Both the position numbers and the translations under genes were made by a program. Under the pieces are notes generated by a model, which ran no database searches, was not told the DNA's origin, and saw only the letters and a program-made list of their open reading frames with translations. A stretch of DNA of 64,000 bases from Candidatus Bathyarchaeota archaeon (GTDB lineage Archaea > Thermoproteota > Bathyarchaeia > Bathyarchaeales > Bathycorpusculaceae): NCBI GenBank assembly GCA_963707955.1, contig OY970176.1:64001-128000 (forward strand). The letters run 5' to 3'. Position 1 is the first letter of the stretch. Every line of letters begins with the position of its first letter. Positions 7,477 to 22,744 of the stretch are shown piece after piece.

Positions 7477-8261
7477 GAACCGTGCGAGAAGTTGAAATTC
7501 TGAGAATCGACGTTTCCAGCGGACTAGCAAATCAGATGAAAGACTGCGTCGCGCAGGAAAAACCACTACACCTTTTCCTAAACCGAACATTGTACGCCAC
7601 CATTTTCTGCACTCCTTCAAAACTGAAGGAATTGGCAGTTGGGCACTTAGTCTCTGAGGGAATCGTAAAATCAATTGAGGAGATCGAAGAAGTAAACCTG
7701 AAAAAGGATGTTTGCAGGGTTAAGCTGACACCAAGCGTTGACCTGAACAAAAGGCTAAGCTTGTCGAAACATTTTCAACGAGTAATTCTTTCAGCCTGCG
7801 GAAGCAAGGGAACCTATACACCTACGCAGAGGTTGCCCAGAATCAAGTCAAACTTAACGATCAAAGCCGAGGCGGTGCTCGATTGCGTCAACTCTCTGAA
7901 CCGCGCCGCAGAAATCTATAGAAAAACCGGCGGAGTACACGCCGCTGCGATTTTCAGCAGTGATGGAACTCTTATGGCCTCAGCTGAGGACGTTGGTCGC
8001 CACAACGCGGTCGACAAAGTCATAGGCACCACGATGATGCGCAAGACTAATCTTGGAAAATGCATTCTCACCTTGACTGGAAGAATGACAGGCGACATAG
8101 TGATGAAAGCAGCAAGATTAAGAATGCCAGTCGTAGCTTCCATGGCAGCGGCCATTGATTCTGGAATAGCAGTTGCGAAGAAAGCCGATTTGACTCTGGT
8201 TGGGTTCGTCCGGGGGAAGCGGATGAACATTTACAACTATCCAGAGAGAATTCTTGCGTAA
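7473..8261 (+). CDS. fdhD: Formate dehydrogenase accessory sulfurtransferase
   Basis: TGGVHAAA, EDVGRHNAVDKVIG motifs. Confidence 0.93.
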   Translation: MRTVREVEILRIDVSSGLANQMKDCVAQEKPLHLFLNRTLYATIFCTPSKLKELAVGHLVSEGIVKSIEEIEEVNLKKDVCRVKLTPSVDLNKRLSLSKHFQRVILSACGSKGTYTPTQRLPRIKSNLTIKAEAVLDCVNSLNRAAEIYRKTGGVHAAAIFSSDGTLMASAEDVGRHNAVDKVIGTTMMRKTNLGKCILTLTGRMTGDIVMKAARLRMPVVASMAAAIDSGIAVAKKADLTLVGFVRGKRMNIYNYPERILA

Positions 8262-9232: not shown

Positions 9233-9247
9233 GGTGTTCGCGATGCC

Positions 9248-9778
9248 TTAGAGGTAAATGTTGATGGCCTTGCTTTTCTGTAAGATGCCGATTATTATGG
9301 CGCATATTATCAAGCTTGGTATCATGTAGCTTCCGTTGTAAATTGCTGAGTAGACTAAGGGGTTCTCTCCGTTCGCGTAGTTGGACCAGTAGAGTACGCC
9401 TGAGACGAAGTGGCTTATGAATCGGCCTGTAGCGCCTACGACGACGCCTGCAACTGGGGTTTTCTGGAAAAACCCGGCGACGCCAAGCAGACCGAAGGGC
9501 AACGGGTAATCCAGGATGAATTGGGCGGGGTTGACGACGAAAGGTTCGATTGCAAGATCAACGACGCCGAACACGGCGCCTGCGAAAATCCCTATTTTTG
9601 GGCCTCTTCTGTAGGCCAGCCAGAAGATGGGTACCATTCCAATGTTGATGCTTCCGCCTTGTGGCAGGCTGAAGAAAGAATGGCTTATGAGGCTTAAGGC
9701 TCCGGCCAAGGCGACGAGCACTATTACTTCTGAGAGTATCTTGGTGCTAAAATGCCGATTTGCGGGTTTTTGATCTAT
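9248..9778 (-). CDS. thiT: Energy-coupled thiamine transporter S component; probable ATA start at 9778 (first GTG at 9721)
   Basis: LPQGGSI, QFILDYPLPF, RFISHFVSGV, YSAIYNGSY motifs; directly downstream of a TPP riboswitch. Confidence 0.88.
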   Translation of the reverse strand: MDQKPANRHFSTKILSEVIVLVALAGALSLISHSFFSLPQGGSINIGMVPIFWLAYRRGPKIGIFAGAVFGVVDLAIEPFVVNPAQFILDYPLPFGLLGVAGFFQKTPVAGVVVGATGRFISHFVSGVLYWSNYANGENPLVYSAIYNGSYMIPSLIICAIIIGILQKSKAINIYL

Positions 9779-9782
9779 TGTT

Positions 9783-9877
9783 TTTTCCCTCCGCCAGTAT
9801 TACCTGGGTCAGGTTCTAAGGGTCGACGGTGTTCAACCGTCCTCTCAGCCGGGTCACAATCCCAGCTCCCCGAAACC
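9783..9877 (-). ncRNA. TPP (THI-box) riboswitch
   Basis: Minus strand GGGGAGCT...GCTGAGAG...GACCCTTAGAACCTGACCCAGGTAATACTGGCGGAGGGAA matches the TPP aptamer consensus; upstream of thiT; TATA-like TTTTATA near 9905-9912. Confidence 0.93.
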
Positions 9878-10038
9878 TATGAAGGGTAATTGTTATCTAT
9901 GCGTATAAAAGCGTTCTGGATGACACTTTAGATTACGCAACAACGAAAATGCGTTGCTTGGGAGATCGTGATCTGTCGCTGCTTCTTGCCAGTCAGACAT
10001 GCTTAAGAACTTCGTTGATCAATTAGTCTTGATGTTTC

Positions 10039-10602
10039 ATGGACAGACCAATCAAGATTCTGGGTTTTGCGGGGAGCTTGCGAAAAGATTCGTACAATAA
10101 AGCACTGCTACGTGCCGCTGTTGAACTGGCACCAAAGAGTGCTGTGATTGAGACCTTCGACCTTGAAGGTATTCCGCTGTTCAATCAGGACTTGGAGACT
10201 CAACTGCCACAGAAGGTCAAGGACTTCAAGGCCAAGATCAGAGCCGCAGATGCAATACTGATCGTCACTCCCGAATACAACTATTCTATTCCCGGCGTTC
10301 TCAAGAACGCGATCGACTGGGCTTCAAGACCATATCCAGACAACGCGTTTGAAGGTAAACCCGTGGCCGTTATGGGAGCATCGATAGGCATGCTGGGCAC
10401 AGCGAGGGCACAGTATCACCTGCGCCAATGCTTCGTTTTCCTCAACATGCATCCAATCAACGTTCCCGAAGTCTTCCTAGCCTACGCACAGGAAAAGTTT
10501 GATGAAAACGGCGGGTTGAAAGACGAAAACACCAAGAAACTTATAGTTAAGACGCTTGAAAACCTGACCTCTTGGACTCTGAGATTGAGAAAAGATGAGT
10601 GA
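10039..10602 (+). CDS. NADPH-dependent FMN reductase
   Basis: GSLRKDSYN, TPEYNYSIPGVLKNAIDWASR motifs. Confidence 0.93.
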   Translation: MDRPIKILGFAGSLRKDSYNKALLRAAVELAPKSAVIETFDLEGIPLFNQDLETQLPQKVKDFKAKIRAADAILIVTPEYNYSIPGVLKNAIDWASRPYPDNAFEGKPVAVMGASIGMLGTARAQYHLRQCFVFLNMHPINVPEVFLAYAQEKFDENGGLKDENTKKLIVKTLENLTSWTLRLRKDE

Positions 10603-10873
10603 GTTCCACCTACAAGAAGGTTCGTAGGCGGTTTATCGCAAATCCAACGCGAATCGCCCGCATTCGCCAACAGGGCAAAGTCTGCTGCTTCTATAGAACA
10701 GAGAAGGCAGCAGTGTTATCGATCGATAAGCACGGCCTAGATCGTAGCTATGACCTGGAAAAGCGGCGCTGGTCTGGGGCTTGGTTGCAAAGCTCTTGTT
10801 CAAGTATGAAACATACGCAAAGTTCCTTAGCATGCGCTTCCATTTTGAAGCTTTAAAAAAAAAAAGAGGGAGA

Positions 10874-11500
10874 CTAAGCGAAGATGGCCCATATGCTCAC
10901 TGTCCAACTGCCTGTCGACGCTGAGAGCGCTGCGTCATTGAACTGAACTGTTACTGCTGAACTGTCGTAGTAACCAACGTTTGCCGTGAACGCGTCTGAA
11001 TAGCCTATTAGGGAATTTTCAGTCTCATTGTAGGCAAGGTTAACGGTTTTGCCGCGGAAAGTCAATGTAACCATGTCTGGAGTCAGCTGGTTAAAAGCGC
11101 TATAATTGAACGGAAGCACACCCACAACTGGCGTAGAAACGGGACCTGATACGTTGTTTGTTGGCACCAATGGATACGGTAGGTAGATCCACTCTTGTTG
11201 TGAAATATCAAAGACTATTTTGATCGTATAGGACTCTGCCGGGTTCAGGTTCTCTGTCACAACATGGAATGTGTATGGAACGCCCGAAAAGATTTCGCTG
11301 GGTATGTCGCCAACTTTGGTGAGCCTTATTGGAGAATTCAAGCTTGTGTAACTGTCTAACTCGTTGCTTGCACGTTGCCCAGAAAGAACGGCAGAAGCGA
11401 CGAAGACTACTCCGATCAGCGCCAGTGTCGTCAGCGCAGCTACAATGGCTATCCTCTCTTTCCTCATAGAGTCATCAAAGATAAATCGGAGTGCAGACAC
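10874..11500 (-). CDS. Hypothetical membrane-anchored/secreted protein
   Basis: N-terminal TM helix followed by an S/T/N-rich beta domain. Confidence 0.7.
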   Translation of the reverse strand: MSALRFIFDDSMRKERIAIVAALTTLALIGVVFVASAVLSGQRASNELDSYTSLNSPIRLTKVGDIPSEIFSGVPYTFHVVTENLNPAESYTIKIVFDISQQEWIYLPYPLVPTNNVSGPVSTPVVGVLPFNYSAFNQLTPDMVTLTFRGKTVNLAYNETENSLIGYSDAFTANVGYYDSSAVTVQFNDAALSASTGSWTVSIWAIFA

Positions 11501-11504
11501 TTAA

Positions 11505-11570
11505 TGCCAAGCATTAGTACATTTGATACCAAGCACTGGTACATTTAGTACCAAGCATTGGTACACGACA
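11505..11570. repeat. Three tandem 22-bp repeats containing the palindrome GTACCAAGCATTGGTAC
   Basis: TGCCAAGCATTAGTACATTTGA / TACCAAGCACTGGTACATTTAG / TACCAAGCATTGGTACACGACA. Confidence 0.85.
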
Positions 11571-11726
11571 GCACATGCTAGTTCTATGTTTTTTAACACT
11601 GTGATTTTCTCAAGCTAACCATTCCAAAACTGCTTACGGGATCTAGACCGATATTGGCGGACACACATTAGGAAAAACCTCTGAGAGTTAGCAGGTTTTT
11701 TAAGACCGCAAGAATTAACAGAACCG

Positions 11727-11775
11727 TTTTGGGGTAAAGTTTTATCCCCAAACCCAAACCCCAAACACACACAAA
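11727..11775. repeat. Palindromic motif GGGGTAAAGTTTTATCCCC followed by (CCCAAA)n and (CA)n; copy 1 of 4
   Basis: Read directly; related copies at 14771, 18411 and 20827. Confidence 0.8.
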
Positions 11776-11815
11776 AATTATTAGCTTTACAATACAAGCC
11801 TTGTAGGGGGTTGAT

Positions 11816-12451
11816 GTGTCATTCAACGTCCTAGGCATGATTGAAGATAAACGAGCGGTTAAGCCCTCACGATGGAACAGGGTCTTCCGCATAAGCCTCA
11901 AGCAACTTCTCGTCCTGATTCTTGTCATTGTTGCGGCTTTAGCCTCATTTGGTTGGGCTTCCGATAGAATTGAAACTCACAAACGTTGGGCATCGATGGT
12001 CGAGACATCACAGGAATTTGGTATTGTTTTCTCTGAGGTATACGTCCGTCTTCCTAGCATCACGGAAAACGCAACGACTGACCCCACACATTTCTGGTTT
12101 ACGAACGAGTTGGATTTTGCAAGTTGGACACTTAGCCAATTGGTTAAGGTTGACGAGGCACATGAGAGTGAACTCTATTGGATAGAAGATTTGATCGTTA
12201 CCTTACGTGACGCGAGCATAAATGGAGTACTGTTGAACGACTCCCAGTTTTGGAATTTGAGTAACGGTATTAAACTTATTGCAATTGAGCTTCCTGAAGC
12301 ATACTGGAATCCTCTCAACACCACGAGTGTAAACAGCGAGACTGGACCTCCCTTCTGGTATTTCGGGCCCTCACCACCTGACGAAACTATGTTGCAAACA
12401 GTAGCAACCCTCGCCATGCAACTAACAGAAACTATCCCAAAATCGACTTAG
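11816..12451 (+). CDS. Hypothetical single-TM protein
   Basis: 211 aa ORF with N-terminal hydrophobic helix; stop codon overlaps GCGCGCGC. Confidence 0.7.
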   Translation: MSFNVLGMIEDKRAVKPSRWNRVFRISLKQLLVLILVIVAALASFGWASDRIETHKRWASMVETSQEFGIVFSEVYVRLPSITENATTDPTHFWFTNELDFASWTLSQLVKVDEAHESELYWIEDLIVTLRDASINGVLLNDSQFWNLSNGIKLIAIELPEAYWNPLNTTSVNSETGPPFWYFGPSPPDETMLQTVATLAMQLTETIPKST

Positions 12452-12619
12452 CGCGCGCACGGTGAAATTCGAGGCGGAAACATTTATTTTCTAATATCCA
12501 TATAAATCGACTTCAGCGTCGTCAGTTTCACTCTCATGTACCAAACCCAAGGGATTAACGCACGCGCCCAATAACACCCATGGTTATGAACAGAAGTCCT
12601 GAATCAATGTCGCCAACCG

Positions 12620-13036
12620 TCAAACTACTGCTGCGTTTATTGGTATCGGTTGGCCAGCATATAATGTCCAATATGGCTCCGTTGATGGTGGCATGGTAAA
12701 TTTAGTGTAGTTAGTCGGTATCGTACTGTACATCTCTCCGTATATCACGGTACTACCTTCTTTGGGGAGTGGTGGGATGAAAGTAACACTGTTCGAAGGG
12801 AGTGTTTCGTTGGGAGTTAGCAGCCAATATGTTGTTGAAAAACTTCCATTGGCAAATCGAACTTCAAAATGACCGTAGGGCGTTGGTCTGTCGCTGTATG
12901 TGTTTCCGTCTATGACGATTGTATATGGTAGAGAAGATACGTGTTGCAATCTGATGACGTAGAAAATTCCAGCCAATACTGAGGAAGCAATTATGACCAG
13001 AACGAGAAAGGCAACCCGTATTTTCGTTATTTTCAA
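12620..13036 (-). CDS. Hypothetical single-TM protein
   Basis: 138 aa ORF with N-terminal TM and P/T/Y-rich ectodomain. Confidence 0.65.
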   Translation of the reverse strand: MKITKIRVAFLVLVIIASSVLAGIFYVIRLQHVSSLPYTIVIDGNTYSDRPTPYGHFEVRFANGSFSTTYWLLTPNETLPSNSVTFIPPLPKEGSTVIYGEMYSTIPTNYTKFTMPPSTEPYWTLYAGQPIPINAAVV

Positions 13037-13168
13037 GGTTTCCCCTATTCTTTGATAGTAGAGAGTGGGAATTTAAGATTTCTGTCTTTGTCTTTTGGTG
13101 AAAGACCGGTTATTGGGAAGAGACAAAGGCTAACGCTAATCAATGATTGAATAGTTAAACATAGTCAT

Positions 13169-13369
13169 TCATGTAACAGATACGATTCTAGGAACCCAAT
13201 TTCTTTTTTCATTCCTCAAATATTGAGCAAACAGCAAAGCCTCTTCATTGATTAACGTCTCAATTTCCTGACGCTTACCACTTCTGATTCTGGGAACAGA
13301 AACTCAACTCATAAAAAATCGATCTAAACCTTTGACCAGACTGCGAGTTAGAAAGTCATTCAAGTATTC
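13169..13369 (-). pseudogene. cas1-like 3' remnant (solo Cas1/casposase type), internal stop
   Basis: Translates EYLNDFLTRSLVKGLDRFFMS*VSVPRIRSGKRQEIETLINEEALLFAQYLRNEKRNWVPRIVSVT*; fits the Cas1 C-terminal helices; paralogous piece at 16699. Confidence 0.65.
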
Positions 13370-13429
13370 TCAAGGGAAACATATAAACGATTACTCGTCT
13401 TATGCAAGGAAAAGGGCGGTTCTCCCTGC

Positions 13430-14254
13430 ATGAAATGTGAAGTGTGTGGCCAAGAAATATTCCTACCGTTCCGATGCCCATACTGCAACGGGCAATTCTG
13501 CGAAGCTCATCGTTTGCCAGAAAACCATAATTGTCCAAATATACATCTTGCCCGCGCACCGAAACAGGAAGGAGACGTTGTTGTTTCGAGACCGGCAACG
13601 TCGGCCACGTATGATTACAGAATTACTCTTGGACCACCTCGACAACATAAAGGACGAGTTTATTTCAGCCCGAAAGAAGTTAAGCATTTGGCCATAGCTG
13701 CGTTGCTCGTCATCGCTGTCGGGATGCTGTCCGTTCTCTACGGCAGCATTATACCTGGGCCTAATTTGACCATCTCCGTCGTCGCTTTCACCATCATCCT
13801 GACCATGTCTTTTTTCATCCATGAAATGGCACATAAAATAACCGCTCAGAGAAGGGGTCTCTGGTCAGAATTCAGGTTGACACTCTGGGGCTCCGTTGTG
13901 ACTCTAATCTTTGCGTTTCTGCCGATCAAATTTATTTCTCCGGGCGCCGTGATGATCGCCGGAGCCGCTGATAGCAAAGAAATAGGAGAAATATCCATAG
14001 CTGGACCCATCGTCAACATCGTCTTGTCAATGCTGTTCCTCGGCACAGCATTCGTATCACGCTCCTATTCCTCAATCTTCATCTTCAGCAGCTTCTTCAA
14101 TGCGTACATAGCCGGATTTAACCTCTTACCAGTCGGAATTTTCGACGGACACAAAATATTCAACTGGAGCAAAATGATCTGGGTCTGCGCCTTCGCCATA
14201 AGCGCAGCCTTAACGGCAATCGGCTACATAATGTACTTACCTTACCTGCAGTGA
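13430..14254 (+). CDS. AN1 zinc finger + M50 site-2 metalloprotease
   Basis: CxxC...CPYC...FCEAHRLPENHNC; HEMAH; FNLLPxxxFDG. Confidence 0.9.
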   Translation: MKCEVCGQEIFLPFRCPYCNGQFCEAHRLPENHNCPNIHLARAPKQEGDVVVSRPATSATYDYRITLGPPRQHKGRVYFSPKEVKHLAIAALLVIAVGMLSVLYGSIIPGPNLTISVVAFTIILTMSFFIHEMAHKITAQRRGLWSEFRLTLWGSVVTLIFAFLPIKFISPGAVMIAGAADSKEIGEISIAGPIVNIVLSMLFLGTAFVSRSYSSIFIFSSFFNAYIAGFNLLPVGIFDGHKIFNWSKMIWVCAFAISAALTAIGYIMYLPYLQ

Positions 14255-14534
14255 AAGACTTAAAAAGCTGGCAGCGCGACGTCCCCAGCTAGCACGAAGG
14301 CTTCCGGAAACGATGTATTTCAGTCGTTCTCCAGTTTTGATCTCGCATGTGCTGTCCACGCTGAACGCGCGCATGAGGGATGACGCATTCCTCCGAGCCA
14401 CAACATTACTTTAACTCCACTCTCTCCACTTTTCCAGAACGTCGCATTGACAAACGCCTTTTAACTCTGAAACTCGACGTTTCAACCGTAGCAAATCTTT
14501 CCTTCACCAGGCGAACCTGATGTCTAATGACTGC

Positions 14535-14693
14535 TTGACCAAACCATGCAACCTGTGCGGCAACCGCATTCAAGGCGCCAACTACCATTGCCCAACGTGC
14601 AAGATCTGCATCTGCTTCGGCTGCGGACTGAAAATGGTCAACAAAGAAAACTACCCCCTAAGATGCCCAAGGTGCGGCGCAAAACTAGAGTAA
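14535..14693 (+). CDS. Small Cys-rich zinc-finger protein (52 aa, below the ORF track cutoff)
   Basis: MTKPCNLCGNRIQGANYHCPTCKICICFGCGLKMVNKENYPLRCPRCGAKLE; four CxxC pairs. Confidence 0.7.
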   Translation: MTKPCNLCGNRIQGANYHCPTCKICICFGCGLKMVNKENYPLRCPRCGAKLE

Positions 14694-14750
14694 CAAGCTG
14701 TCAAGGTCATTTCCTCAACACGCTATCAGCGATCGCTAGATTGACAAACA

Positions 14751-14790
14751 CCGTTTTTTGGTGGTTTGTTGGGGTAAAGTTGTATCTTTC
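14751..14790. repeat. GGGGTAAAGTTGTATC motif preceded by a G/T-rich tract; copy 2 of 4
   Basis: CCGTTTTTTGGTGGTTTGTTGGGGTAAAGTTGTATC resembles 11724-11746. Confidence 0.6.
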
Positions 14791-15320
14791 TCTTTTCACG
14801 AGAGCGAACTTATTCTCCAGCGCATCGTTGCTTAGCCAAAGAATTGAAGATCTGTTAGGGCCCTGAGCTGGAAATAGAAGTTACAGATGCACTGAAGAAG
14901 AGGGCCATCTTGCTGACCAAGATCACGGAAGTCATCCCGGAAGGTTTCGGAGTAGCAAAGAAGCGCGCGCAAAACAACTTGCTATACTTTACCATTCAAC
15001 ATAGGCAGAAGGGAGTCATTTTCTAATAATTGTCACGAAACAGTCGTAGAAAAGAAATTTTTTTGACGATTTGTTACGCACGCGCGGTATCGGTTTTAGC
15101 TTCTCTCATAAACGACTGCAATACTGTGATTTACGGATTCGGTTTCTGGCTCACGCTTCTTTCAGTACTTCCGTTGTCGGTAGCAGCAGTCATCAGCGTC
15201 ATTGAAGCTCCAACGGGCTCCTGCCTGCTTAGGTTTTCTTGGGCAGCGTCTAAGGCCAATGTGAAAGCTCTGTCGTTAGCACTGACTTATTGAATTGTAT
15301 CTGAAAGGTTGGTTGGTCCT

Positions 15321-16391
15321 CTATTTCAGCTGGTTTTTCTTTCTCTTGAGGAGGGCGGTTGCGAGCAGTGTTGCGGCGAAGGGTATTGCTAGGATTGCGG
15401 TTGATGGAAACTCTGGAACTGTTGGGGTCTGATAATTCTGTAGCATGGGGTTTCCTTGTTGTGACTGGTACACGGAAGCTGGAATTGAGCCTGAACCTGA
15501 AGCTGCTGTCGCTGTTCCTCCTTCTTCCGGTAGGGCACTGACGCCGAGGGGCACGACCCAGTAGTTAGGTTGCTGAACGCTTAGGGTGATGGAAGTATTG
15601 TTTTCTGGAGGGATCACAAATGCTGATCCGGCTAGGCCGACGTATGTTGGTTGCCAGTAGACTGTGACGTTGACTTGTTCGCCGGCGACTGTGACTTGGA
15701 CGGTTGTCATGTTGCTCGGTAGGTTGACGTATATCCAATCCCATGCGTTGATTTGAACGGGAGCTTGAGGTGTAATAAGCGTGGCTGAACCGTCAGCTTG
15801 GGTCGATGTCCAAAGTTGGAGGTTTTCTCCGTAGTCCCAGTAGTACCAGGATCCCAGTATGGAGGCGGAAACTGAGGCGCCCTCAGCTGCGGTGCCATTG
15901 GCATAAGTGACTTCTACGGTTATTGTGGTTTCGGGAAACGATGTGACGTTTTGCGTTTGGATCGTGAATGCTGTTGAGCCGGATATCTGGTCGTTCGAGT
16001 AGCCGTATTCTGTGACAGGCGTTGCGTAGTATGGCATCGTGTAGACGCCTTGGATGGCATTTGATGTCTGATATGCGTCATAGTAGGCTGTTGCGGTGAA
16101 AACGTATTGTCCGTCGGGCAGTTCGAAGGAGGCTGCCGCATATTGGGTTTGGCATGAGGCAAGCAGGTAGCCGCTCATGTTAAAGGCTGAGACGGTGAAG
16201 CTGTAGGGAAGGTTGTTCTGAGTCTGGATGGTTATGCGAACGTTGCTATATGAAGCTGCTCGAGTAAGCGGCAGTGAGCACAACACGATTGCTGTGAGAC
16301 TCAAGATCAAGAAGGCGGCTGAAAAATAAAGGAATGCCTTTGGTTTGTTCACGGAATTCTCTCCGTCAATATCAACCAGAACCTTGCACAC
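15321..16391 (-). CDS. Secreted surface protein with PEF-CTERM-like sorting signal
   Basis: Signal/TM N-terminus, T/S/Y-rich body, C-terminal VPEFP + hydrophobic helix + KRKK. Confidence 0.8.
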   Translation of the reverse strand: MCKVLVDIDGENSVNKPKAFLYFSAAFLILSLTAIVLCSLPLTRAASYSNVRITIQTQNNLPYSFTVSAFNMSGYLLASCQTQYAAASFELPDGQYVFTATAYYDAYQTSNAIQGVYTMPYYATPVTEYGYSNDQISGSTAFTIQTQNVTSFPETTITVEVTYANGTAAEGASVSASILGSWYYWDYGENLQLWTSTQADGSATLITPQAPVQINAWDWIYVNLPSNMTTVQVTVAGEQVNVTVYWQPTYVGLAGSAFVIPPENNTSITLSVQQPNYWVVPLGVSALPEEGGTATAASGSGSIPASVYQSQQGNPMLQNYQTPTVPEFPSTAILAIPFAATLLATALLKRKKNQLK

Positions 16392-16698
16392 ATATAAACA
16401 TCGTGCGCGCGCTAGATTTCTGTGTAATGTGGTTTAGAGTGGAAAGAGAGACTGGATTTAGTAGTAGTATGTTATTGTTGTGACTTACATCTCATTTAAT
16501 TATCGATAAGTATAATTGGCTCTACTCTTATCGTCCAAGAAGCAAGGGCAGTACCGTTATAGTAACAGTTCAAGTCTACACTTGTCGAAGATTGACCGTC
16601 AATCCCCCAAAGTGTGCTATTTGCTATTTGGTGTTACCTCTGTATCTACAGCTAAAGAGCCCTCATTATGATAAGCTTCCACATGAAAGAAAGCATAT

Positions 16699-16825
16699 GT
16701 TTCAAGGGTGAGGATGGGTAAGCGTCAGGAAATTGAAACTCGGATTAACGAAGAAGCCCTATTATTTGCTCAATACCTGAGAGATGAAAAAAACTTGGAT
16801 TCCCATAGTTGTCAATTTGAATTAA
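16699..16825 (+). pseudogene. Second cas1-like 3' remnant, frameshifted in an A-run
   Basis: VSRVRMGKRQEIETRINEEALLFAQYLRDEK/TWIPIVVNLN*; shares GGTAAGCGTCAGGAAATTGA exactly with the 13169-13369 copy. Confidence 0.62.
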
Positions 16826-16880
16826 TCTACTTTCTGTATTGCGCGCGCTTTTATATCGTTGATAAGACAAGTTAAGACTT

Positions 16881-17447
16881 GTGACTCTGAAGATGAAAAC
16901 GGAATCTGCAATAGGCAGTATTCTTTCCGCAGCAGCGGGGCTTGTTCTGTTTTCTGCTTTCTTTCTTTCCTTTCTAATAACTGTAGGTACGTTTGGCGAG
17001 GAGTGGCGTACAGTACTTACACTTGAATCAACTGCTAATTCCTACACGCAATGGACGTGGCTTACTCTTGAATTGGGCATTTTGCCAATTGCGATAGGTC
17101 TAGTCTTATGTGCAATTGATTTCATGCTACACGAGAAAACTCGTACAAAAAGCCTAAACCAACTTCTACTCTGTGTCGCTGGTGGCATCTTCGCCGCTTG
17201 GGGGATCTACTATTTCCTTCGCGCATGTTCTAGTTATAACGTGGCAATTGGTTTAGCTGATCACTGGAACTTTGGCATCGGGGGGCAACCTAGGATAATA
17301 GCGTCACTTACGGTAATCGGGGAACTCAGGACAATCTATGCAGGATATAAGTTGGTCGGCATTCTTTGGCTCGTTCTGGGGATATTTCTTTCAGCAACTT
17401 CTGGTTACATTATGGCGCGGGCTCCAAATCACGTGGTTCGATCTTGA
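16881..17447 (+). CDS. Hypothetical 4-TM membrane protein
   Basis: Four hydrophobic segments. Confidence 0.7.
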   Translation: MTLKMKTESAIGSILSAAAGLVLFSAFFLSFLITVGTFGEEWRTVLTLESTANSYTQWTWLTLELGILPIAIGLVLCAIDFMLHEKTRTKSLNQLLLCVAGGIFAAWGIYYFLRACSSYNVAIGLADHWNFGIGGQPRIIASLTVIGELRTIYAGYKLVGILWLVLGIFLSATSGYIMARAPNHVVRS

Positions 17448-17673
17448 ACCAAGTCAGTTTTCGTTCAACTTTTGGCGTAGAATGCCTTTGGACAAGGCAA
17501 AGCAAAATCCTGCACTACAGGTAAGCTTTTCATCATCTAATCCCTTCGTCGTTTCAACAAGCATGGCAAGGTTTGCATTTTACAATTGTGTAGAACTCGA
17601 GACCTCTCACGTCTCGTTCGCCGACGCTTTCCCCAAATAATCAGGTGTTCAACCCGCTTATTTAATACTTCTT

Positions 17674-17761
17674 TATCTGTCTGCTTGTCTGTCTGTCTGC
17701 CTGTCGGTCTGGGTCTGTCAGAGAGAGGTATAGTAAAGGTAGAGGAAAAAAGTAGAAAGGT
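17674..17761. repeat. Low-complexity element A copy 1: (TCTG)n-GGGTCTGTCAGAGAGAG-ATAGTA...GTAGAAAGGT
   Basis: Aligns with 20705-20812. Confidence 0.85.
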
Positions 17762-17792
17762 AGCGCGCGCGTTAGATTTAGTTCTGCTGTCT

Positions 17793-18290
17793 CTAGACTT
17801 TTCCCATTTCAAGAAAGCGCTCACTGTCTTCATCAGTCTTGTCCAAAGTGCCTTCTGCTTCCCAATGAGTCCCCACAACCTTGCTGACGTATCCATCAAT
17901 AAAACAGTACACTACGAAGAGAATCATAGCTGTAGGCAAGTTCGCCGAATAGAAGATTATGATTACTGACGGGATGGACACCATTAAAAGCGCGATGAAC
18001 AGCACAAACCCATGAACCAGCAATTTTTTCCAGTGATCATCTACTGGGATGCTCCATATCTTCTCTATAAGAAAACTGTTGACAGCACCAAAAATGAAGA
18101 ACAAGACAAGAAAGCCGATTATCAACCCTATAATAGCACCGAAAACAATTAAGCCAACAAGCATCGGGCCCAAGACGATACCCATAGTCAATTCGAATAT
18201 GCTGAAAAGAAGACCGTGACCAAAATATCTTGGCAGCAGATGGCCCAGTGAGGATTCTTTCGAGTCTCTCGTTGTCCCTTTCCAACACAT
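17793..18290 (-). CDS. Hypothetical multi-TM membrane protein
   Basis: Four hydrophobic segments; start uncertain. Confidence 0.7.
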   Translation of the reverse strand: MCWKGTTRDSKESSLGHLLPRYFGHGLLFSIFELTMGIVLGPMLVGLIVFGAIIGLIIGFLVLFFIFGAVNSFLIEKIWSIPVDDHWKKLLVHGFVLFIALLMVSIPSVIIIFYSANLPTAMILFVVYCFIDGYVSKVVGTHWEAEGTLDKTDEDSERFLEMGKV

Positions 18291-18391
18291 TCCACCTGCC
18301 GACTGCTTTACTTTCAGCTCGTTTCCACACGCAAGCTTAAATATGACACGTCAAGCAAAGACTCCTTCAAGATTATGTATCAGCTCGATTA

Positions 18392-18563
18392 TTTTGGGTT
18401 TTGGGTTTTGGAGGTAAAGTTTTACCCAACCAACTACAACTCTACTACGGTCACCAACCTAACTCTGTGACCACTCACTCCTTCTCCTACATACCCTCCT
18501 ATATACCCTCACACACGCACGCACACGCACACGGAGTGAGTGAGAAGGATAAGCGTGCGCTAA
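18392..18563. repeat. Low-complexity element B copy 1: (TTTTGGG)n-GGTAAAGTTTTACCC-C/A-rich tract-(CACG)n
   Basis: Same architecture as 20811-20980; includes the 12-bp duplication CTCCTA(C/T)ATACC. Confidence 0.8.
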
Positions 18564-18624
18564 TCAGAGCAATGTCTTCAAAGCGCCAAAAGAGATTGTT
18601 TCTGAAATCTCTTCCACGAATCTG

Positions 18625-19026
18625 ATGTGCTCTGCATCAATCCAAGAATTTATGGAACGCTGGAAAACAACAGGCTTTCTCTCTCGGTTAATTCCGTTTA
18701 GCTTTAAACACAGCACAGCCACGCAGAACAGGATAGTGAACAACCTAGAAAACAAGGTTTCGGACACAATACGTAATCATCCATACGTGATTAACAAGAA
18801 TCCTTCACCTGTCAAAACTTCCCCTGTCCTTTTACATCAACTTTCCATTTATGGTGAGGCACTAGGAAAGGAAACGCGTGCCATGCCCTATCGAGCAGAC
18901 ATACAATTGCATACTCTCGCTGAAGCACTCGCGATAATTGAAAACTCCAACGAGCTAACGCAAGGGCACGTTGACAGAATCGTTAACCTGCTCCGCTATG
19001 TGAATTATGATTTCAACGATATTTGA
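18625..19026 (+). CDS. Hypothetical protein, possibly a C-terminal fragment of an AAA+/helicase-like MGE protein
   Basis: GFLSRLIPF resembles an arginine-finger segment followed by a helical lid; no Walker A present. Confidence 0.4.
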   Translation: MCSASIQEFMERWKTTGFLSRLIPFSFKHSTATQNRIVNNLENKVSDTIRNHPYVINKNPSPVKTSPVLLHQLSIYGEALGKETRAMPYRADIQLHTLAEALAIIENSNELTQGHVDRIVNLLRYVNYDFNDI

Positions 19027-19511
19027 GAGGTGAGAGAGTGACAAAAACTAAACGTGTTTCAAAACGACAAATCAGCGCAATCAGAAGTTACGCTCGCAAA
19101 GGCTACTCTGCAAACAAGATTCAACACAAACTGAGACAAAGACACATGGGAATGAGGCGCACAAAACTTCTGAGCTACGTGAGGAAATACAAGCACAAAC
19201 AACCAAAAGCTCACCCTGAAAAACACATACGCAAAAAATACAGAAAATCAACATACCAAGCAAGACCAACTGGAAAACCAGCAATAGGACTGTTTCAGAA
19301 ACAGATTGCTTGCTACGGTTCAGAGCATGGAAAATCTAAAAGGATACAGATGAGTGGAAGCGGAAGACAACTGTATCAAGCCATGCAGATAGTTTCTAAG
19401 CATCCGCCCAAAAAACAGTTTCTAACCGTAAGTCCTGAGGCTTTGTTAGAAGACCCAGAAGAATATCTTGAAAGGGGACACTGGGATGCTAGGCCAAAAG
19501 TTGAAAGTTAA
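19023..19511 (+). CDS. Highly basic putative nucleic-acid-binding protein
   Basis: K/R-rich; GYSANKIQHKLR helix-turn-helix-like segment. Confidence 0.6.
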   Translation: MRGERVTKTKRVSKRQISAIRSYARKGYSANKIQHKLRQRHMGMRRTKLLSYVRKYKHKQPKAHPEKHIRKKYRKSTYQARPTGKPAIGLFQKQIACYGSEHGKSKRIQMSGSGRQLYQAMQIVSKHPPKKQFLTVSPEALLEDPEEYLERGHWDARPKVES

Positions 19512-19986
19512 TACTTCTCTGGTCTGGGGAGACTGGGACACAGAAACCATTAGGTTAGACTGGGATGACGCCCCTTCATTAGACGAAGTAAAACTCTGGT
19601 CTTACAGAGCAACCTTCTTTTTCAAACTGGAAGGATTCATAATCTCGGAATCAAGCCACAAAAACTATGTTGTGACACAGAAAAGAAAAATCTTTTTCAA
19701 ACTCAGAAAGGCAAGTTATCATGTAGTTTTTAATCGCCCAGTCGATTGGAGCTTAAACGTTCACGTTATGAACTGGGTTGCCTTGGAAAGCGGAAACGAG
19801 AACTTGCAGAAATATGTTAGGATGCAGTGCATCAAGGAAACTTCAACCGTGAGGATGTCAAGGAAGGGTAAGAAACCTATTCCAAAAATTATCTTCAGCT
19901 ATGGTCTGCAAGACAAGATGATTAAGAAGTATCTGGGAAATCGCAGTTTCATACTCAATTTTCTCAGGAAGGAAAGGAGGCGATAA
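19468..19986 (+). CDS. Small AEP (primase-polymerase)-like protein
   Basis: IRLDWDD (motif I DxD) and SESS...SYHVVF (motif II His) in AEP-like order. Confidence 0.5.
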   Translation: MKGDTGMLGQKLKVNTSLVWGDWDTETIRLDWDDAPSLDEVKLWSYRATFFFKLEGFIISESSHKNYVVTQKRKIFFKLRKASYHVVFNRPVDWSLNVHVMNWVALESGNENLQKYVRMQCIKETSTVRMSRKGKKPIPKIIFSYGLQDKMIKKYLGNRSFILNFLRKERRR

Positions 19987-19988
19987 CA

Positions 19989-20165
19989 ATGGTTTGGAAA
20001 GACTGTGGCTATTTGAGTTTAACTAAGGATGGAAAGAAAGTGGCTGTCGTAGTTAAGAAGGCTCGGTACATAGCAAAACTTGAAGAACTACGAAAGGTTC
20101 TTGATGGGAAACAAAGCTACACTTACATCCTTGAACCTTCTTCAGAAAAAAGAGAGAAAATTTGA
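19989..20165 (+). CDS. Small hypothetical protein (58 aa)
   Basis: MVWKDCGYLSLTKDGKKVAVVVKKARYIAKLEELRKVLDGKQSYTYILEPSSEKREKI; SD-like GGAGG upstream; 2 nt after the previous stop. Confidence 0.7.
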   Translation: MVWKDCGYLSLTKDGKKVAVVVKKARYIAKLEELRKVLDGKQSYTYILEPSSEKREKI

Positions 20166-20188
20166 AACTTTTGAGGGCGCGCGCTAAT

Positions 20189-20611
20189 CTAGGTCGCTGA
20201 TTTACCCGCTTTGAAGAGAAAGGCTTCTATCTGCTCTTTCGTCATGATGCCTTCTGCGATTTCGCCAGAATCAGCAACCAACGCTGGAAGAGTCTTGATT
20301 TTTTTAGAGTGGTCAAATTTCCAGTTTGAGAAGGCACTCTCCTTCGTTAGGTCAACCACCGTCAAAACGAAACCGTGCTCTGAGGCAAGCTCTGTGGCTT
20401 CTTCGACCATTCTCATTTGGTCTTCAGGAAGTACAAAATCGTATTCAATGACGGTTTCTTGGTCATAATATGAGTGCGCTCTCTGTGGCACCCCATAGAA
20501 TCTTGACAGAACCTCTCCCTGCTTGGGAACAAACACCTGCACATTTCTTTTAGGAATCTTAGCACTTCTCACGTAGAGAATGATTTCGGAGCTCATGCTC
20601 TTCGCCTTCAA
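20189..20611 (-). CDS. Hypothetical protein with thioredoxin-like C-terminus
   Basis: VVDL...IKTLPALV...GIMTKEQIEAFL pattern without CxxC. Confidence 0.6.
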   Translation of the reverse strand: MKAKSMSSEIILYVRSAKIPKRNVQVFVPKQGEVLSRFYGVPQRAHSYYDQETVIEYDFVLPEDQMRMVEEATELASEHGFVLTVVDLTKESAFSNWKFDHSKKIKTLPALVADSGEIAEGIMTKEQIEAFLFKAGKSAT

Positions 20612-20704
20612 GTATTCTTTCTACCATGCTCCGAAAAAAAGTTTGCGTATCAAGTACGCGCCGTTTATCCATCTCTTTTTCTTTGCGCGATATCTCGCTA
20701 TCTC

Positions 20705-20980
20705 TATCTGTCTGTGTGTCTGTCTGCCTGCCTGTCTGGGTCTGTCAGAGAGAGAGGGATAGTATAGGTGAATAGTGGAAAGGCACAGTCGTAGTCGTGG
20801 TCGTAGAAAGGTTTGGGTTTGGGTTTGGGGGGTAAAGTTTAATCTTCCTAAATCTCTCTCTCGATTTCTTATGCACGCGACGACGCTCTAACTCTGACGC
20901 TCTAACTCTGACGCTCTAACTCTACCCCCTACTCACTCACTCTACACACGCACACACACACGCACACAAAAAAACACGCA
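20705..20980. repeat. Contiguous low-complexity element A+B copy 2: (TCTG)n, (GA)n, (GGGTTT)n, GGTAAAGTTTAAT, (GACGCTCTAACTCT)x3 at 20882-20923, (CA)n
   Basis: Read directly; homologous to 17674-17761 plus 18392-18563. Confidence 0.85.
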
Positions 20981-21229
20981 GAAGTCAGAGAAACTTCGGG
21001 TTTCATCGGGCTTTCTCTGTTTCTCATATTCCTCTTTCAGTTTGACTAGAGCGCGCGTTACTCTGCACAATAACTTTTGCAATCACTCGAGCGCGCGTGT
21101 GCTCAGGGTTTAGACAGAATCGCTATTTTGGATTCATAACGCTTTTCTAATGCGCGCTAGGAAATAGCATATGAGCAAAATGTCTATTTGGTGATCTTGT
21201 TGTCTCACAGTGAAGAGAGAGTTGAGGGA

Positions 21230-21709
21230 ATGACTGAGAAAGAGACCAACGTGACTCTAACAGTCGAGGACGTGATGGTCAAGGAAGTAATAAAGATAAA
21301 CGAGGACGTCATGGTCAAAGAAGCCGCTAAATTAATGAACAAGTATGAAATCGGCTGCTTGATAGCTCTTAAGAAGGGCAAGGTCTCGGGAATTTTGACA
21401 GAGAGAGACTTGTTGAAAAGGGTGGTTGCTGAGGCGAAGGATGCGTCCAAAATAAGAGTCAAAGATGTGATGACGAGTCCTTTGGTTGTTGCTGAACCAA
21501 AGATGGATCTTGTTGAAGGTGTGAGATTGATGTTTCAGATGAAGATAAAGAAGTTGCCTGTGGTCGAAGACAAGCGCTTAATGGGTCTATTGAGTTTGAC
21601 TGACATTGCTCGTTTCCAACCTCAAATGATGGTGCTGGTCAGACTACTTGCCGCCAATCAGACCACACCAAAAAGCATGCAAAAAGTAATCGACCGCTAC
21701 ATTATCTAG
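21230..21709 (+). CDS. CBS domain pair protein
   Basis: VEDVM...GILTERDLL...VKDVMTSP...IKKLPVV...GLLSLTDI. Confidence 0.92.
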   Translation: MTEKETNVTLTVEDVMVKEVIKINEDVMVKEAAKLMNKYEIGCLIALKKGKVSGILTERDLLKRVVAEAKDASKIRVKDVMTSPLVVAEPKMDLVEGVRLMFQMKIKKLPVVEDKRLMGLLSLTDIARFQPQMMVLVRLLAANQTTPKSMQKVIDRYII

Positions 21710-21914
21710 CGCGCACACCATCGCAATCTCACCTTCTCATACCTGTCCAGACATGCTCTGCAAACCCTACAAAAAAGGAACGAGTCTAGTCAACTTACGC
21801 GCGCTAATCTTCTTAGAACCTCAAAGCTAATCCTGAAATGATCCTTCCAAAGCAAGTGCTTGCACAAACTGTGACGAAAGCCGTTTAGCTCGCGCCAAAA
21901 GAAGAAACTTTTTT

Positions 21915-22142
21915 CTATCCTTCATGCGCGATCATCGTTATTGTTGATTTAACTCTCTCCAGTCTCCTTATCTTGTCATGTGATTCTTTGAGCCTGTCCA
22001 TAGTATCCGCTCTTGTTCTTACAATGATGTCATAGACGCCGTAGACAGGATAAGCTTCTTCAACTCCCTTAATCTCCCTCAATGCTTTCATCAACATCGG
22101 GTGATATTCTTCTGAATTTATCAACAAATATGCCGTAGGCAT
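21915..22142 (-). CDS. Stand-alone Lrp/AsnC ligand-binding domain protein
   Basis: AYLLIN...GVEEAYPVYGVYDIIV...IRRLERVKSTITMI. Confidence 0.88.
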   Translation of the reverse strand: MPTAYLLINSEEYHPMLMKALREIKGVEEAYPVYGVYDIIVRTRADTMDRLKESHDKIRRLERVKSTITMIAHEG

Positions 22143-22282
22143 CCAAATCACCTTTTACTCTCTCTGAACACTTGGCTTTTAGCTTTTGGGCGCGCGCTAG
22201 CAGAAGCAGAGTTTCCTTCACTATCCGAGATTCATAACATTTTTACATCATTTTCTCTAGTTAGCTAAAAGGGAATTTGAAG

Positions 22283-22450
22283 ATGGTTAATTGTCCAGAA
22301 TGTGGGAAACTATTGAAAAAGGGCTCGCGCAAGAAAAGGTACTGCTGCGAAAACAGCGCTTGTTCCGTTATATTTGTTCTTCATCCTGACAATCAATCAT
22401 TAATGGAGATAAAATACAAGGCCAGCGCGAGCTCTAAGGCTTCCGTATGA
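22283..22450 (+). CDS. Small zinc-ribbon protein (55 aa)
   Basis: MVNCPECGKLL...YCCENSAC. Confidence 0.6.
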   Translation: MVNCPECGKLLKKGSRKKRYCCENSACSVIFVLHPDNQSLMEIKYKASASSKASV

Positions 22451-22744
22451 AGCGACCCGTCTTAAGGTAGCGCGCGCTAACTTAAGGAGCGAGATTGCCC
22501 TTTGCAAGGTTCGAAGCAAAGTAGTTCAAGCGCCGCGCAGTACTGAAGTCAGATTTGGCTTTTGACAAGGGCATGCCAAAATTTCTTGCTTCCACGAACT
22601 TTGCCCAAAAAATTTCTCAACCAGTAGCGTGCACTGATTCGGTTTCCAACGTGCTTCAAGAGAAAAGAGGGGATTTGCGGGAGACATCGCCTTAATTAGG
22701 AAGATATTTACTTTTCCTAGCCATAGTTCGCAATTTGCGTCAGG

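Follow-up and report, generated by a model that had tools for sequence, protein, structure and literature searches.

Casposases generate target-site duplications of 14–15 bp, and tandem casposons can be parted only by a common 14-bp duplication, as described in the available portions of two reports (PMC6614799, PMC4779613); the family 2 casposons of Methanosarcina are arranged in tandem with such a common 14-bp target-site duplication (Krupovic et al. 2016, PMC4779613). The 14-base core GGTAAAGTTTTATC, which recurs in a 64,000-nt stretch of a Bathyarchaeia genome (the window), is best explained, at about even confidence, as the duplicated target common to tandem insertions of casposon-like elements without a polymerase, to which Cas1 would be linked. 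As far as the available text of the Methanosarcina study goes, the resemblance takes in site-specific insertion, a duplicated 14-bp target, neighbors parted by the common duplication, inactivated copies, solo ends, island building at one site and an element-borne cas1. Those casposons have as their target the end of a tRNA or elongation-factor gene, whereas here it is a single conserved word that looks like a promoter, and each near-complete genome of the genus studied here has 27–43 copies of it, distributed over many islands. The element ends differ as well, falling into several sub-families of low-complexity, G-poor sequence. Among the features that define casposons, a Cas1-family gene (in one module), terminal inverted repeats and 14-bp flanking direct repeats are present here, whereas the family B DNA polymerase domain of self-synthesizing elements was found neither among 117 island ORFs nor among 13 ORFs flanking cas1 in the comparison genome G001, and cas1 is missing from most modules.

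The casposase of Aciduliprofundum boonei likewise makes a 14–15-bp duplication, recognizes its target by sequence and requires of the end no more than its final few 3' nucleotides, according to the accessible part of Béguin et al. 2019 (PMC6614799). There, the end is TCCCC-3' and the target lies at tRNA-Pro with a required leader motif; here, GG-3' closes the modules on both strands. T4-type phages have PeSL cassettes which, as presented in parts of PMC2839356 and PMC4122927, resemble the present system: their ORFan modules, located in hyperplastic regions, are bordered by a short conserved regulatory motif that is found at the seams of insertion, deletion and replacement. PeSLs, however, are promoter-plus-terminator units co-oriented with genes, whereas the genes here are oriented nearly at random and the two kinds of end mirror each other. 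A CRISPR array, the repeat of which is duplicated by Cas1-Cas2 at each acquisition, shares with the core arrays direct repeats in one orientation, unrelated inserts, nearby Cas1-family genes and a repeat that would double with each integration; that identity was nevertheless rejected, the repeat being 14 bp rather than 24–40 bp, the inserts 0.4–14 kb of genes rather than 30–40 bp, and the spacing irregular (3040, 3640 and 2418 nt from core to core in the window), with no cas2 or effector genes here. Archaeal BRE/TATA promoters lie about 25 nt upstream of the transcript start. The core is like them in having an A-rich block followed by a T/A-rich 7–8-mer, 15 bp in total and similar to the host tRNA promoters, and unlike them in being near-invariant over 14 positions, apparently independent of gene direction and placed ahead of genes that have a TATA box of their own.

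A directional 14-bp word in an accessory island

With up to three mismatches allowed, the 16-mer GGGGTAAAGTTTTATC matched the window four times, always on the forward strand, at 11731, 14771, 18411 and 20829 (0.44 expected by chance), and four or more copies were reached in none of 100 dinucleotide-preserving shuffles. The first-pass annotation had listed the same four co-oriented copies, the fourth with a start at 20827, which is the beginning of a longer G run. It had also called the motif a palindrome; the symmetry is only approximate: the 14-mer and its reverse complement are not identical, and the motif has a direction. The strand asymmetry it described holds at every copy, the left side being G-rich and C-free and the right side C-rich and G-free. 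The left flanks are GTTTTGG, TTTTTTGGTGGTTTGTTGG, TTTTGGGTTTTGGGTTTTGGA and GGTTTGGGTTTGGGTTTGGGG. To the right, copy 1 is followed by (CCCAAA)n and then (CA)n, copy 2 by merely ~14 nt of TTTCTCTTTT, copy 3 by CAACCAAC and a G-poor run of ~110 nt that ends in CACGCACAC, and copy 4 by a run of ~150 nt that passes from CT-rich to CA-rich. Relatives of this last end sequence adjoin cores at genome position 2293588, in G001 and in G007, and part of the sequence left of core 4 is repeated at 17671–17727.

All four copies lie within a single block (Table 1) that is absent as a whole from two genomes of the same genus, G003 and G004, in which the site is empty, so the label "accessory island" was correct. 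Elsewhere, the site holds 1 kb (G009), 3.07 kb (G001) or ~3.4 kb (G007). No core was present at the outer borders of the window's island or at the empty sites of G003 and G004. The first module contains a 211-aa ORF (11816–12451), a 138-aa ORF on the reverse strand, a Cas1 stub, a zf-AN1/M50 gene (13430–14254) and a small zinc-ribbon ORF (14520–14693), and is classed as a mosaic because its two ends have no homology to each other. The second contains a 356-aa ORF on the reverse strand, the other Cas1 stub and ORFan genes. The third contains four forward-strand ORFs (18625–20165), relatives of which adjoin an intact cas1 in G001 (contig C28).

Table 1. Coordinates of the island, cores, modules, end sequences and Cas1 remnants (window positions unless marked as genome)
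Feature	Coordinates	Strand	Description
Insertion island	9908..22703		Between thiamine-transporter/TPP-riboswitch unit and class I tRNA synthetase gene
Core copy 1	11733..11746	+	Exact GGTAAAGTTTTATC
Core copy 2	14773..14786	+	1 mismatch
Core copy 3	18413..18426	+	1 mismatch
Core copy 4	20831..20844	+	1 mismatch
Module 1 (cores 1–2)	11747..14772		Mosaic
Module 2 (cores 2–3)	14787..18412		Mosaic, ends without homology
Module 3 (cores 3–4)	18427..20830		Both ends G-poor when read inwards
Cas1-solo C-terminal stub, 44 codons	13172..13303	-	65% identity to residues 304–346 of intact G001 Cas1, E 1e-19
Second Cas1-solo C-terminal stub	16698..16792	+	70% identity to residues 310–336 of intact G001 Cas1, E 6e-12
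Mirror-image G-poor end sequence left of core 4	20698..20830	-	Read on - strand
G-poor low-complexity end sequence right of core 4	20845..20985	+	CT-rich, CTAACTCT repeats, CA-rich
Complete element, 3.6 kb	genome 2258291–2261921 (module 2258305–2261907)		14-bp direct repeats of core and inverted ends

Interspecies homology breaks at the core edges

Among 109 core copies from three species (for G001 and G007, only the stretches around known copies were taken in), the downstream sequence is common to 39 pairs and the upstream sequence to 18, and no pair has both flanks in common. In the 15 pairs inspected, six of the upstream and nine of the downstream type, identity reaches one edge of the 14-mer and vanishes past the other. 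At window copy 2, the match to G007 contig C11 stops at 14786 and the match to G007 contig C4, which has no core, begins at 14785. A G007 locus of the form A-core-B has as its G001 counterpart A-core-2.6 kb-core-1.2 kb-core-B. Neighboring cores up to 15 kb apart point in the same direction in 41 cases and in opposite directions in 19. A near-identical pair of filled and empty sites was sought, and none was found. Crossover between dispersed cores would yield identical breakpoints.

Mirror-image ends and a complete core-flanked element

Comparison of the right 200 nt of cores with the inward-read left 200 nt of other cores gave 49 matching pairs, 27 of them at least 60 nt and 13 at least 90 nt long; the reversed-sequence control gave 11, 2 and 0, respectively. 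Judged from these alignments, both sides of the core are abutted by the same sequence families, in mirror orientation. The first-pass annotation had suggested element ends or integration sites, and both the breaks at the core edges and the behavior of the flanks as mirror-image element ends speak in its favor.

One complete example was found (Table 1). Its direct repeats, which read GATAAAACTTTACC and GACAAAACTTTACC along the top strand, are 14 bp long and one mismatch apart, and flush with them lie 94-nt inverted ends that are 88% identical. A cas1 pseudogene (124.7 bits to PF01867, one internal TAA) comes first, followed by three unique ORFs without a Pfam match. A G007 module of 2163 nt is flanked on both sides by the same rare core variant, GGTAAGGTTTTATC, and its left end falls in the 94-nt end family of the cas1 module. 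Identical variant cores flank 2 of 49 modules (permutation mean 0.28, P 0.03). Long inverted ends occur in one module of the 49, and an inverted-end match of any kind in four, against none in direct orientation; tip matching within modules is marginal (8.39 vs 7.85, P about 0.05).

Cas1 remnants cluster near cores

Both cas1 stubs reported near the window copies proved to be C-terminal remnants of Cas1-solo, inverted relative to each other. The co-localization of Cas1 with the motif is real: of nine stubs genome-wide, eight are no more than 2.0 kb away from a core, and one module combines cas1, 94-nt inverted ends and core repeats. That module is the only core-flanked one that carries cas1, the window modules holding C-terminal stubs only. 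Intact Cas1-solo genes, encoding a protein of 347 aa, are present in G001, where a core is either at least 3.4 kb away or absent within 7.7 kb; no 94-nt end was found beside any cas1 copy other than that of the complete element. A Cas1-solo that is 50% identical occurs in G014, the genus of which has the motif at background level.

Proposed target duplication and competing explanations

We propose, with the case for and against nearly balanced, that the core is the exact seam between adjoining inserted modules, a target doubled at each insertion of an element with inverted ends that are G-poor when read inwards. An integrase would attach the two 3' termini of a linear element, in a staggered fashion, at either border of the 14-bp target, and gap repair would leave one target copy on either side of the element. 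Because every new copy of the core would be a new target, insertions would accumulate next to one another in the same direction, and islands would grow. Subsequent deletions and exchanges would give rise to mosaics that enclose cas1 remnants, the three modules of the window being examples, and the G/T-rich left and C-rich right flanks of a core would be the tips of two adjoining elements. Staggered integration of this kind would explain the duplication of the target, and the 14-bp repeats around the cas1 module would have originated in the same way. Tentatively, the responsible enzyme may be the Cas1-solo protein of the genus, acting on a casposon-like element without a polymerase gene; the claim is directly testable, since the 14-bp target is defined and an intact Cas1-solo gene is known. 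If the proposal as a whole is true, one short word accounts for flexible-island assembly across a whole Bathyarchaeia genus and provides a simple marker of cassette borders in metagenome bins, and Cas1-mediated integration extends to cargo elements that have no polymerase and multiply a dedicated target of their own, with a bearing on how a transposon target could become a CRISPR repeat.

By its sequence, the core also resembles a host BRE/TATA promoter. This likeness may be why it became a target, or the core may have promoter activity as well. In a bolder version, which we consider doubtful, a Cas1-solo transposon family that lost or never had a polymerase targets a promoter-like 14-bp word and, by duplicating it, builds kilobase-scale "repeat-cassette" cargo arrays; the target would perhaps be TBP-bent DNA, and each repeat might give the next cassette a promoter. 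Casposons and CRISPR arrays would thereby be bridged by a living intermediate.

The strongest competing explanation, itself rather unlikely, is that a strong BRE/TATA promoter heads small regulatory or gene cassettes that are shuffled by crossover in their sole common sequence, recombination being a by-product; the core would then mark an archaeal counterpart of phage PeSL cassettes. The succession of AAAG and TTTTAT fits the local layout: GGTAAAG and TTTTATC in the core, read as BRE plus TATA, compare with CGAAAG and CTYTAAAT at tRNA genes, and the words enriched ahead of genes include TTTAAAT, TTTATAT and AAACTTA. On the downstream side, homology begins at the core, which is followed at a fixed distance by a conserved 150–200-nt non-coding element with no other TATA box. 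The core upstream of the 211-aa gene of module 1 is kept at two G009 loci (72% identity); of 107 copies, 15 have ACGACG 10–35 nt past the core and none has it upstream; a few single-mismatch copies lie 37–43 nt ahead of start codons, like real promoters; and the genome encodes four TBPs and three TFBs, the genus having 3–5 TBP genes against 1–2 in most sister genera. However, of 28 intergenic copies, with gene contexts taken from a crude purpose-made gene caller, only 16 have a co-oriented gene downstream, and the arrangements (8 divergent, 15 tandem, 5 convergent) are near random. Moreover, several downstream genes have a TATA box of their own 25–40 nt before the start (genome copies 394456, 1280959, 2033863, 2053418 and 2270563), and in the 211-aa family a AAAATTATTA box stays constant at ~40 nt from the start, the core-to-start distance being 69 vs 50 nt. 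Given this near-random orientation and these separate TATA boxes, the core does not behave as an ordinary gene promoter, and its role as the promoter of the adjacent gene was rejected. Nor does promoter shuffling account for the same end families on both sides in mirror image, for the right-hand core of the cas1 module, which would drive only antisense transcription, or for the one recombination partner without a core. The BRE/TATA alternative of the first-pass annotation is thus retained as a possible secondary property and dropped as the main explanation.

It is improbable that the core is an att- or integron-like crossover site of a tyrosine recombinase, at which circular one-core cassettes integrate into a resident core. 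The short inverted arms and asymmetric AT-rich center of GGGGTAAA and GGGGATAA have the layout of recombinase core sites, and the direct repeats, the arrays and the filled and single sites agree with such an enzyme; at genome 551 kb, an integrase gene has a variant site with repeat-type flanks ~270 nt away, and the copy at 654371 is 0.9 kb from another integrase gene. Yet six of eight genome core clusters have no integrase-family gene nearby, mirror-image ends are not expected of circular cassettes, and the core-less partner again does not fit. Quite improbable, too, is a binding site for a genus-specific DNA-binding protein, a silencer or boundary of foreign DNA that marks islands without a role in recombination: conservation in every genome of the genus, directionality and confinement to accessory DNA and viral contigs would suit it, but the breaks at both core edges, the mirror ends and the identical variant pairs would be left unexplained. 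That the 19-mer is a casposon inverted terminal repeat, or a hairpin-telomere resolution site at a head-to-head telomere junction, was already disfavored and is highly improbable: for all its GGGG...CCCC quasi-symmetry, its telomere-like flanks and the TCCCC-3' end given for the A. boonei casposon in the available part of PMC6614799, copies bound modules in direct, not inverted, orientation, and the two flanks of a copy do not exceed shuffled pairs in complementarity (3.88 vs 4.37 at shift 0, 5.44 vs 5.77 at the best shift). A hairpin or cruciform was rejected on the same shuffled pairings over 107 copies, and an inverted terminal repeat on the placement of the motif, which flanks modules as a direct repeat, like a target-site duplication. 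The similarity to casposon termini raised in the first-pass annotation had a basis in that published 3' pentamer, which does not amount to an alignment.

Distribution across the genus and viral contigs

A count over the whole genome gave 14 exact matches to the 14-mer and none to the reversed word; with at most one mismatch allowed, there were 34 matches, against three for the reversed control. The motif is present in all ten other genomes of the genus and at background level in other genera, and is thus specific to one genus. The islands of this genus hold defense genes, parts of proviruses and ORFan genes. Among 11 viral-collection contigs with the 17-mer, seven show the motif together with the same type of flank, and in one of these the motif adjoins a terminase gene.

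A directional 14-mer with asymmetric flanks

The window contains four copies of a 14-mer, GGTAAAGTTTTATC (the core), all on the same strand, usually with GG on the 5' side and C on the 3' side (see the table of features). The first-pass annotation had noticed four motif copies in the same orientation, and the count was confirmed: with at most 3 mismatches, its 16-mer matched four times in the window compared to 0.44 expected, and none of 100 shuffled sequences yielded at least four matches. The flip in strand composition described there was equally evident, the left flanks of the window cores being G/T-rich and free of C, and the right flanks C-rich and free of G, with low-complexity, G-poor sequence extending over ~110 nt at copy 3 and ~150 nt at copy 4.

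The window covers positions 64001-128000 of a single 2.35-Mb contig with 47.9% G+C, and its MCH and CdvA genes fit Bathyarchaeia. Genome-wide, the exact 14-mer was found 14 times and the reversed word 0 times; with up to one mismatch, the counts were 34 and 3, respectively. The motif is present in all 10 further genomes of the genus, with 43 copies in G001, 42 in G009, 35 in G007, 28 in G008, 27 in G003, 23 in G004, and 3-5 in the less complete genomes; the 30 genomes of other genera contain 0-9 copies (controls, 0-5). In a viral collection, the exact 17-mer was detected in 11 contigs; repeat-type flanks of the same kind surround it in 7 of these, and a terminase operon follows one copy. The titles and opening lines of abstracts on Bathyarchaeia promoters or TATA boxes and on Bathyarchaeota casposons contain nothing on this motif.

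Across 107 aligned copies from genomes G000, G001, and G007, the conserved signal consists of ~13 nt free of C, the 14-mer, and ~12 nt free of G, with nothing beyond. The left flanks come as (GGGTTT)n, (GGTT)n, (GT)n, or purine runs with an AAAAAG end, and the right flanks as (CCCAAA)n, (CAAC)n, (CA)n, or (CT)n. When flanks were scanned for with the centre ignored, such repeat-type flanks were almost confined to the surroundings of this core (on the strand scanned, a flag was set at 23 of 142 sites; many of the others, by eye and uncounted, carry the reverse complement). A hairpin or cruciform at the core is excluded as a selected feature because the flanks of one copy are no more complementary than those of different copies (3.88 within copies vs 4.37 between copies at shift 0; 5.44 vs 5.77 at the best shift).

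Two other words were recorded. The commonest 10-mer of the genome is AGCGCGCGCT (228 counts on both strands; in the window, e.g., at 21050-21058, 21090-21098, and 21153-21160), and CGCGCGC shows a 4.8-fold excess in intergenic DNA upstream of genes (274 vs 57.4 expected), often with a G-poor end sequence on one side and the TATA box of the gene itself on the other.

Coordinates of cores, Cas1-solo stubs, and conserved non-coding elements (window positions unless marked)
Feature	Location	Strand	Remarks
TPP riboswitch	9768-9882	-	68.3 bits; before thiamine-transporter gene
Core 1	11733		exact
Core 2	14773		one mismatch
Core 3	18413		one mismatch
Core 4	20831		one mismatch
Cas1-solo stub	13172-13303	-	E 1e-19 vs intact G001 protein
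Cas1-solo stub	16698-16792	+	E 6e-12 vs intact G001 protein
Conserved element	genome 394067-394270		
Conserved element	genome 2263455-2263600		
Conserved element	genome 654111-654360	-	
Conserved element	G007 loci L138, L139, L142		
Conserved element	G001 locus L126		

Homology breaks at the core edges

Comparison of the 300 nt on either side of 109 core copies revealed a common downstream side in 39 pairs, a common upstream side in 18 pairs, and both sides in none. In 15 pairs inspected base by base, 85-96% identity extends as far as one edge of the 14-mer but is gone beyond the other; therefore, each flank moves with the module on its own side, a module being the stretch between two neighbouring cores. 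Homology thus switches at the 14-mer edges in the comparisons of G000, G001, and G007, with breaks in all 15 inspected pairs, which supports the suggestion in the first-pass annotation that the motif may mark element ends or integration sites.

At core 2, the sequence 13368-14786 is homologous to contig C11 of G007, stopping at the last base of the core, and homology to contig C4 of the same genome, where the partner sequence lacks a core, runs from 14785 onwards. An A-core-B arrangement in G007 corresponds to A-core-2.6 kb-core-1.2 kb-core-B in G001; a 415-bp unit between two cores (genome 394041-394469) is found again in G007 in another setting; and segment ends cluster likewise around the cores of a second island. 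The genomes beyond the window's own were compared as stretches, and no filled/empty pair of recent origin was found. A link to tyrosine recombinases was rejected, the 9 gene matches in the genome showing no consistent association with core clusters.

Two genomes, G003 and G004, have the end of the TPP riboswitch (9907) directly adjoining the tRNA synthetase upstream region (22704), and therefore the intervening 12.8 kb of the window is inserted DNA. At the same site, the insert measures 1 kb in G009, 3.07 kb in G001, and ~3.4 kb in G007. The outer borders of this island do not lie at cores, and the empty sites are free of cores, which counts against a model that requires a core for every event. 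The TPP riboswitch forms the left border of this insertion hot spot; the Rfam search of 9000-24000 otherwise yielded only a sub-threshold chance match.

Mirror-image ends and module structure

When the 200 nt right of each core were compared with the inward-read 200 nt left of the others, 49 pairs matched, 27 of them over 60 nt or more and 13 over 90 nt or more. Reversed, uncomplemented sequence, a control that retains composition and simple repeats and so addresses the inflation of alignments by low-complexity sequence, gave 11 pairs (2 and 0, respectively). On both sides, 8 of the 53 alignments begin no more than 5 nt from the core. Sequences abutting the core on either side thus belong to the same end families, read away from the core, as is characteristic of the inverted terminal repeats of transposons.

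Only one complete element was found, a 3.6-kb module (genome 2258291-2261921) bounded by top-strand direct repeats of the core, GATAAAACTTTACC and GACAAAACTTTACC; its inverted ends, 94 nt long with 88% identity, directly adjoin the core repeats. Its first gene is a cas1 frame (124.7 bits) with one TAA, followed by three ORFs without relatives in the genome or the fetched loci; the 94-nt end was sought beside other cas1 copies and not found. A 2163-nt module of G007, with the rare core variant GGTAAGGTTTTATC at each border, has a left end of the same 94-nt family (87-94% identity) and encodes a helix-turn-helix regulator and two small paralogues, without a transposase; no empty site for it was found in five genomes. 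Among 49 modules between neighbouring cores of the same orientation, two have identical variant cores at both ends (permutation mean 0.28, P 0.03), and four show any inverted-end match vs none in direct orientation; tip matching within modules is marginal overall (P about 0.05). Neighbouring cores point in the same direction in 41 cases and in opposite directions in 19.

Cas1 remnants and intact genes

The cas1 stubs mentioned in the first-pass annotation proved real. The two window stubs encode, at 13172-13303 and 16708-16791, the final 27-43 residues of Cas1-solo, a Cas1-family protein of the genus, a region beyond the reach of the Pfam Cas1 model, which had no match in the window and hit four fragments in the rest of the genome. 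Including seven outside the window, the genome contains nine stubs, eight of them within 2.0 kb of a core, so that the proposed genome-wide co-localisation of motif and cas1 holds. All that remains in these stubs is the last ~45 codons of decayed Cas1-solo genes, at 70-85% DNA identity, with homology stopping at the stop codon.

Intact Cas1-solo copies (347 aa) are present in G001 together with a 235-aa partner gene; they are not adjacent to cores, and no polymerase was found near them. A homologue with 50% identity is encoded in a genus without the motif. The link to Cas1 therefore consists of co-localisation and one structured element. Structural relatives were discarded as a discriminator, the nearest solved structures being CRISPR Cas1 proteins and the M. 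mazei casposase, with similar weak scores. In G001, the neighbours of an intact Cas1-solo gene (locus L127, 4404-5447) include, at 6708-10099, a fusion of prokaryotic E2 and ThiF (E1-like) along with proteasome-like and DUF7665 genes; ubiquitin-like conjugation sets of this type are seen in defence islands.

The core and transcription

Three sequence patterns favour a possible promoter role for the core: a conserved non-coding element follows it at a fixed distance, without another TATA box; of 107 copies, 15 have ACGACG at 10-35 nt past the core and none has it upstream; and two single-mismatch copies are followed by a start codon after 37 and 43 nt. The conserved element, 150-200 nt long and beginning ~13 nt after the core, has no match in Rfam. 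The consensus fold of six copies contains a single conserved long-range helix with 11 pairs, in which the invariant GTATAC..TTCAG pairs with GGAATCGAGTATAC; no compensatory changes were found among the six copies, and the element is a candidate RNA with a predicted helix that lacks covariation. Part of its "terminator" T-runs can be read as the coding strand of a putative zinc-ribbon ORF of ~40 codons in the opposite direction.

The first-pass annotation had offered a BRE/TATA promoter as the alternative explanation of the motif. The resemblance on which this alternative draws stands, tRNA genes carrying CGAAAG followed by CTYTAAAT, and TTTAAAT, TTTATAT, and AAACTTA being the most enriched upstream words, but three results argue against an ordinary promoter. 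According to our own rough gene calls, 28 of the 34 copies are intergenic, and the gene on the downstream side is co-oriented in 16 of these, with 8 divergent, 15 tandem, and 5 convergent contexts, near the random 1:2:1. Several downstream genes possess a separate TATA box at 25-40 nt from the start. Among relatives of the 211-aa gene in module 1 (11747..14772, between cores 1 and 2), a AAAATTATTA box keeps a constant distance to the start codon, whereas the distance from core to start varies (69 nt in the window vs 50 nt in G009).

The genome encodes four TBPs (genome 872209, 1416562, 694856, and 839939) and three TFBs (1613118, 525893, and 1664485), and genomes of the genus have 3-5 TBP genes vs 1-2 in most sister genera. 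This excess was rejected as a motif-specific trait, being seen also in G030 and G040, motif-free genomes of other genera. The core at 874118 is followed, at ~1.4 kb, by an operon that includes one of the TBP genes.

Relationship to casposons

Tested casposases, as described in PMC6614799, duplicate 14-15 bp at a sequence-defined target and require no more of the element end than its five 3'-terminal nucleotides (TCCCC in A. boonei, compared to GG-3' at the module tips here); PMC4779613 likens tandem casposons with nothing but a shared 14-bp duplication between them to Tn7-type island building. The system in the window's genome is built in the same way, with differences in the tens of target copies per genome, the conserved promoter-like word that serves as target, the low-complexity ends, the majority of modules without cas1, and the absence of polymerase B among the ORFs examined; for want of this polymerase, the system is filed as casposon-like, not as a full casposon. 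The first-pass annotation had likened the motif to casposon terminal repeats, a reading that is not supported because the word stands as a direct repeat between elements. For the rival reading, in which the core would be a promoter shuffled together with its cassettes, the best analogue is the phage PeSL cassettes (PMC2839356 and PMC4122927).

The core as an integration site is supported. As for mechanism, the most likely one, in our estimate as probable as all others combined, is site-specific insertion, whereby elements would integrate at the core and the 14-mer would be duplicated by the insertion. The integrating enzyme might be Cas1-solo, an assignment that we consider tentative and rather doubtful.

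Other features of the island and of core-rich regions

Short multi-copy repeats of ~245 nt and ~125 nt, at 22190-22437 and 14838-15085, both have many copies in G001, G003, G004, G007, and G009 and are possible miniature transposable elements. Just 5' of the first ORF of module 3 (18427..20830, between cores 3 and 4), a 75-nt stretch (18562-18636) is 99% identical to G007:C1:261923-261997, well above its surroundings. Zinc-ribbon ORFs adjoin cores at 14520-14693 (57 codons, multi-copy in G001 and G007) and at genome ~394290-394420 (- strand, ~40 codons). Core-rich islands at genome 2250001-2305000 and 2020001-2060000 contain defence-type genes (pPIWI-associated nuclease, SIR2-like, PLD-like, HD, and NYN) along with a terminase-portal pair, an IS-type transposase, GNAT paralogues, and large NosD/beta-helix proteins.
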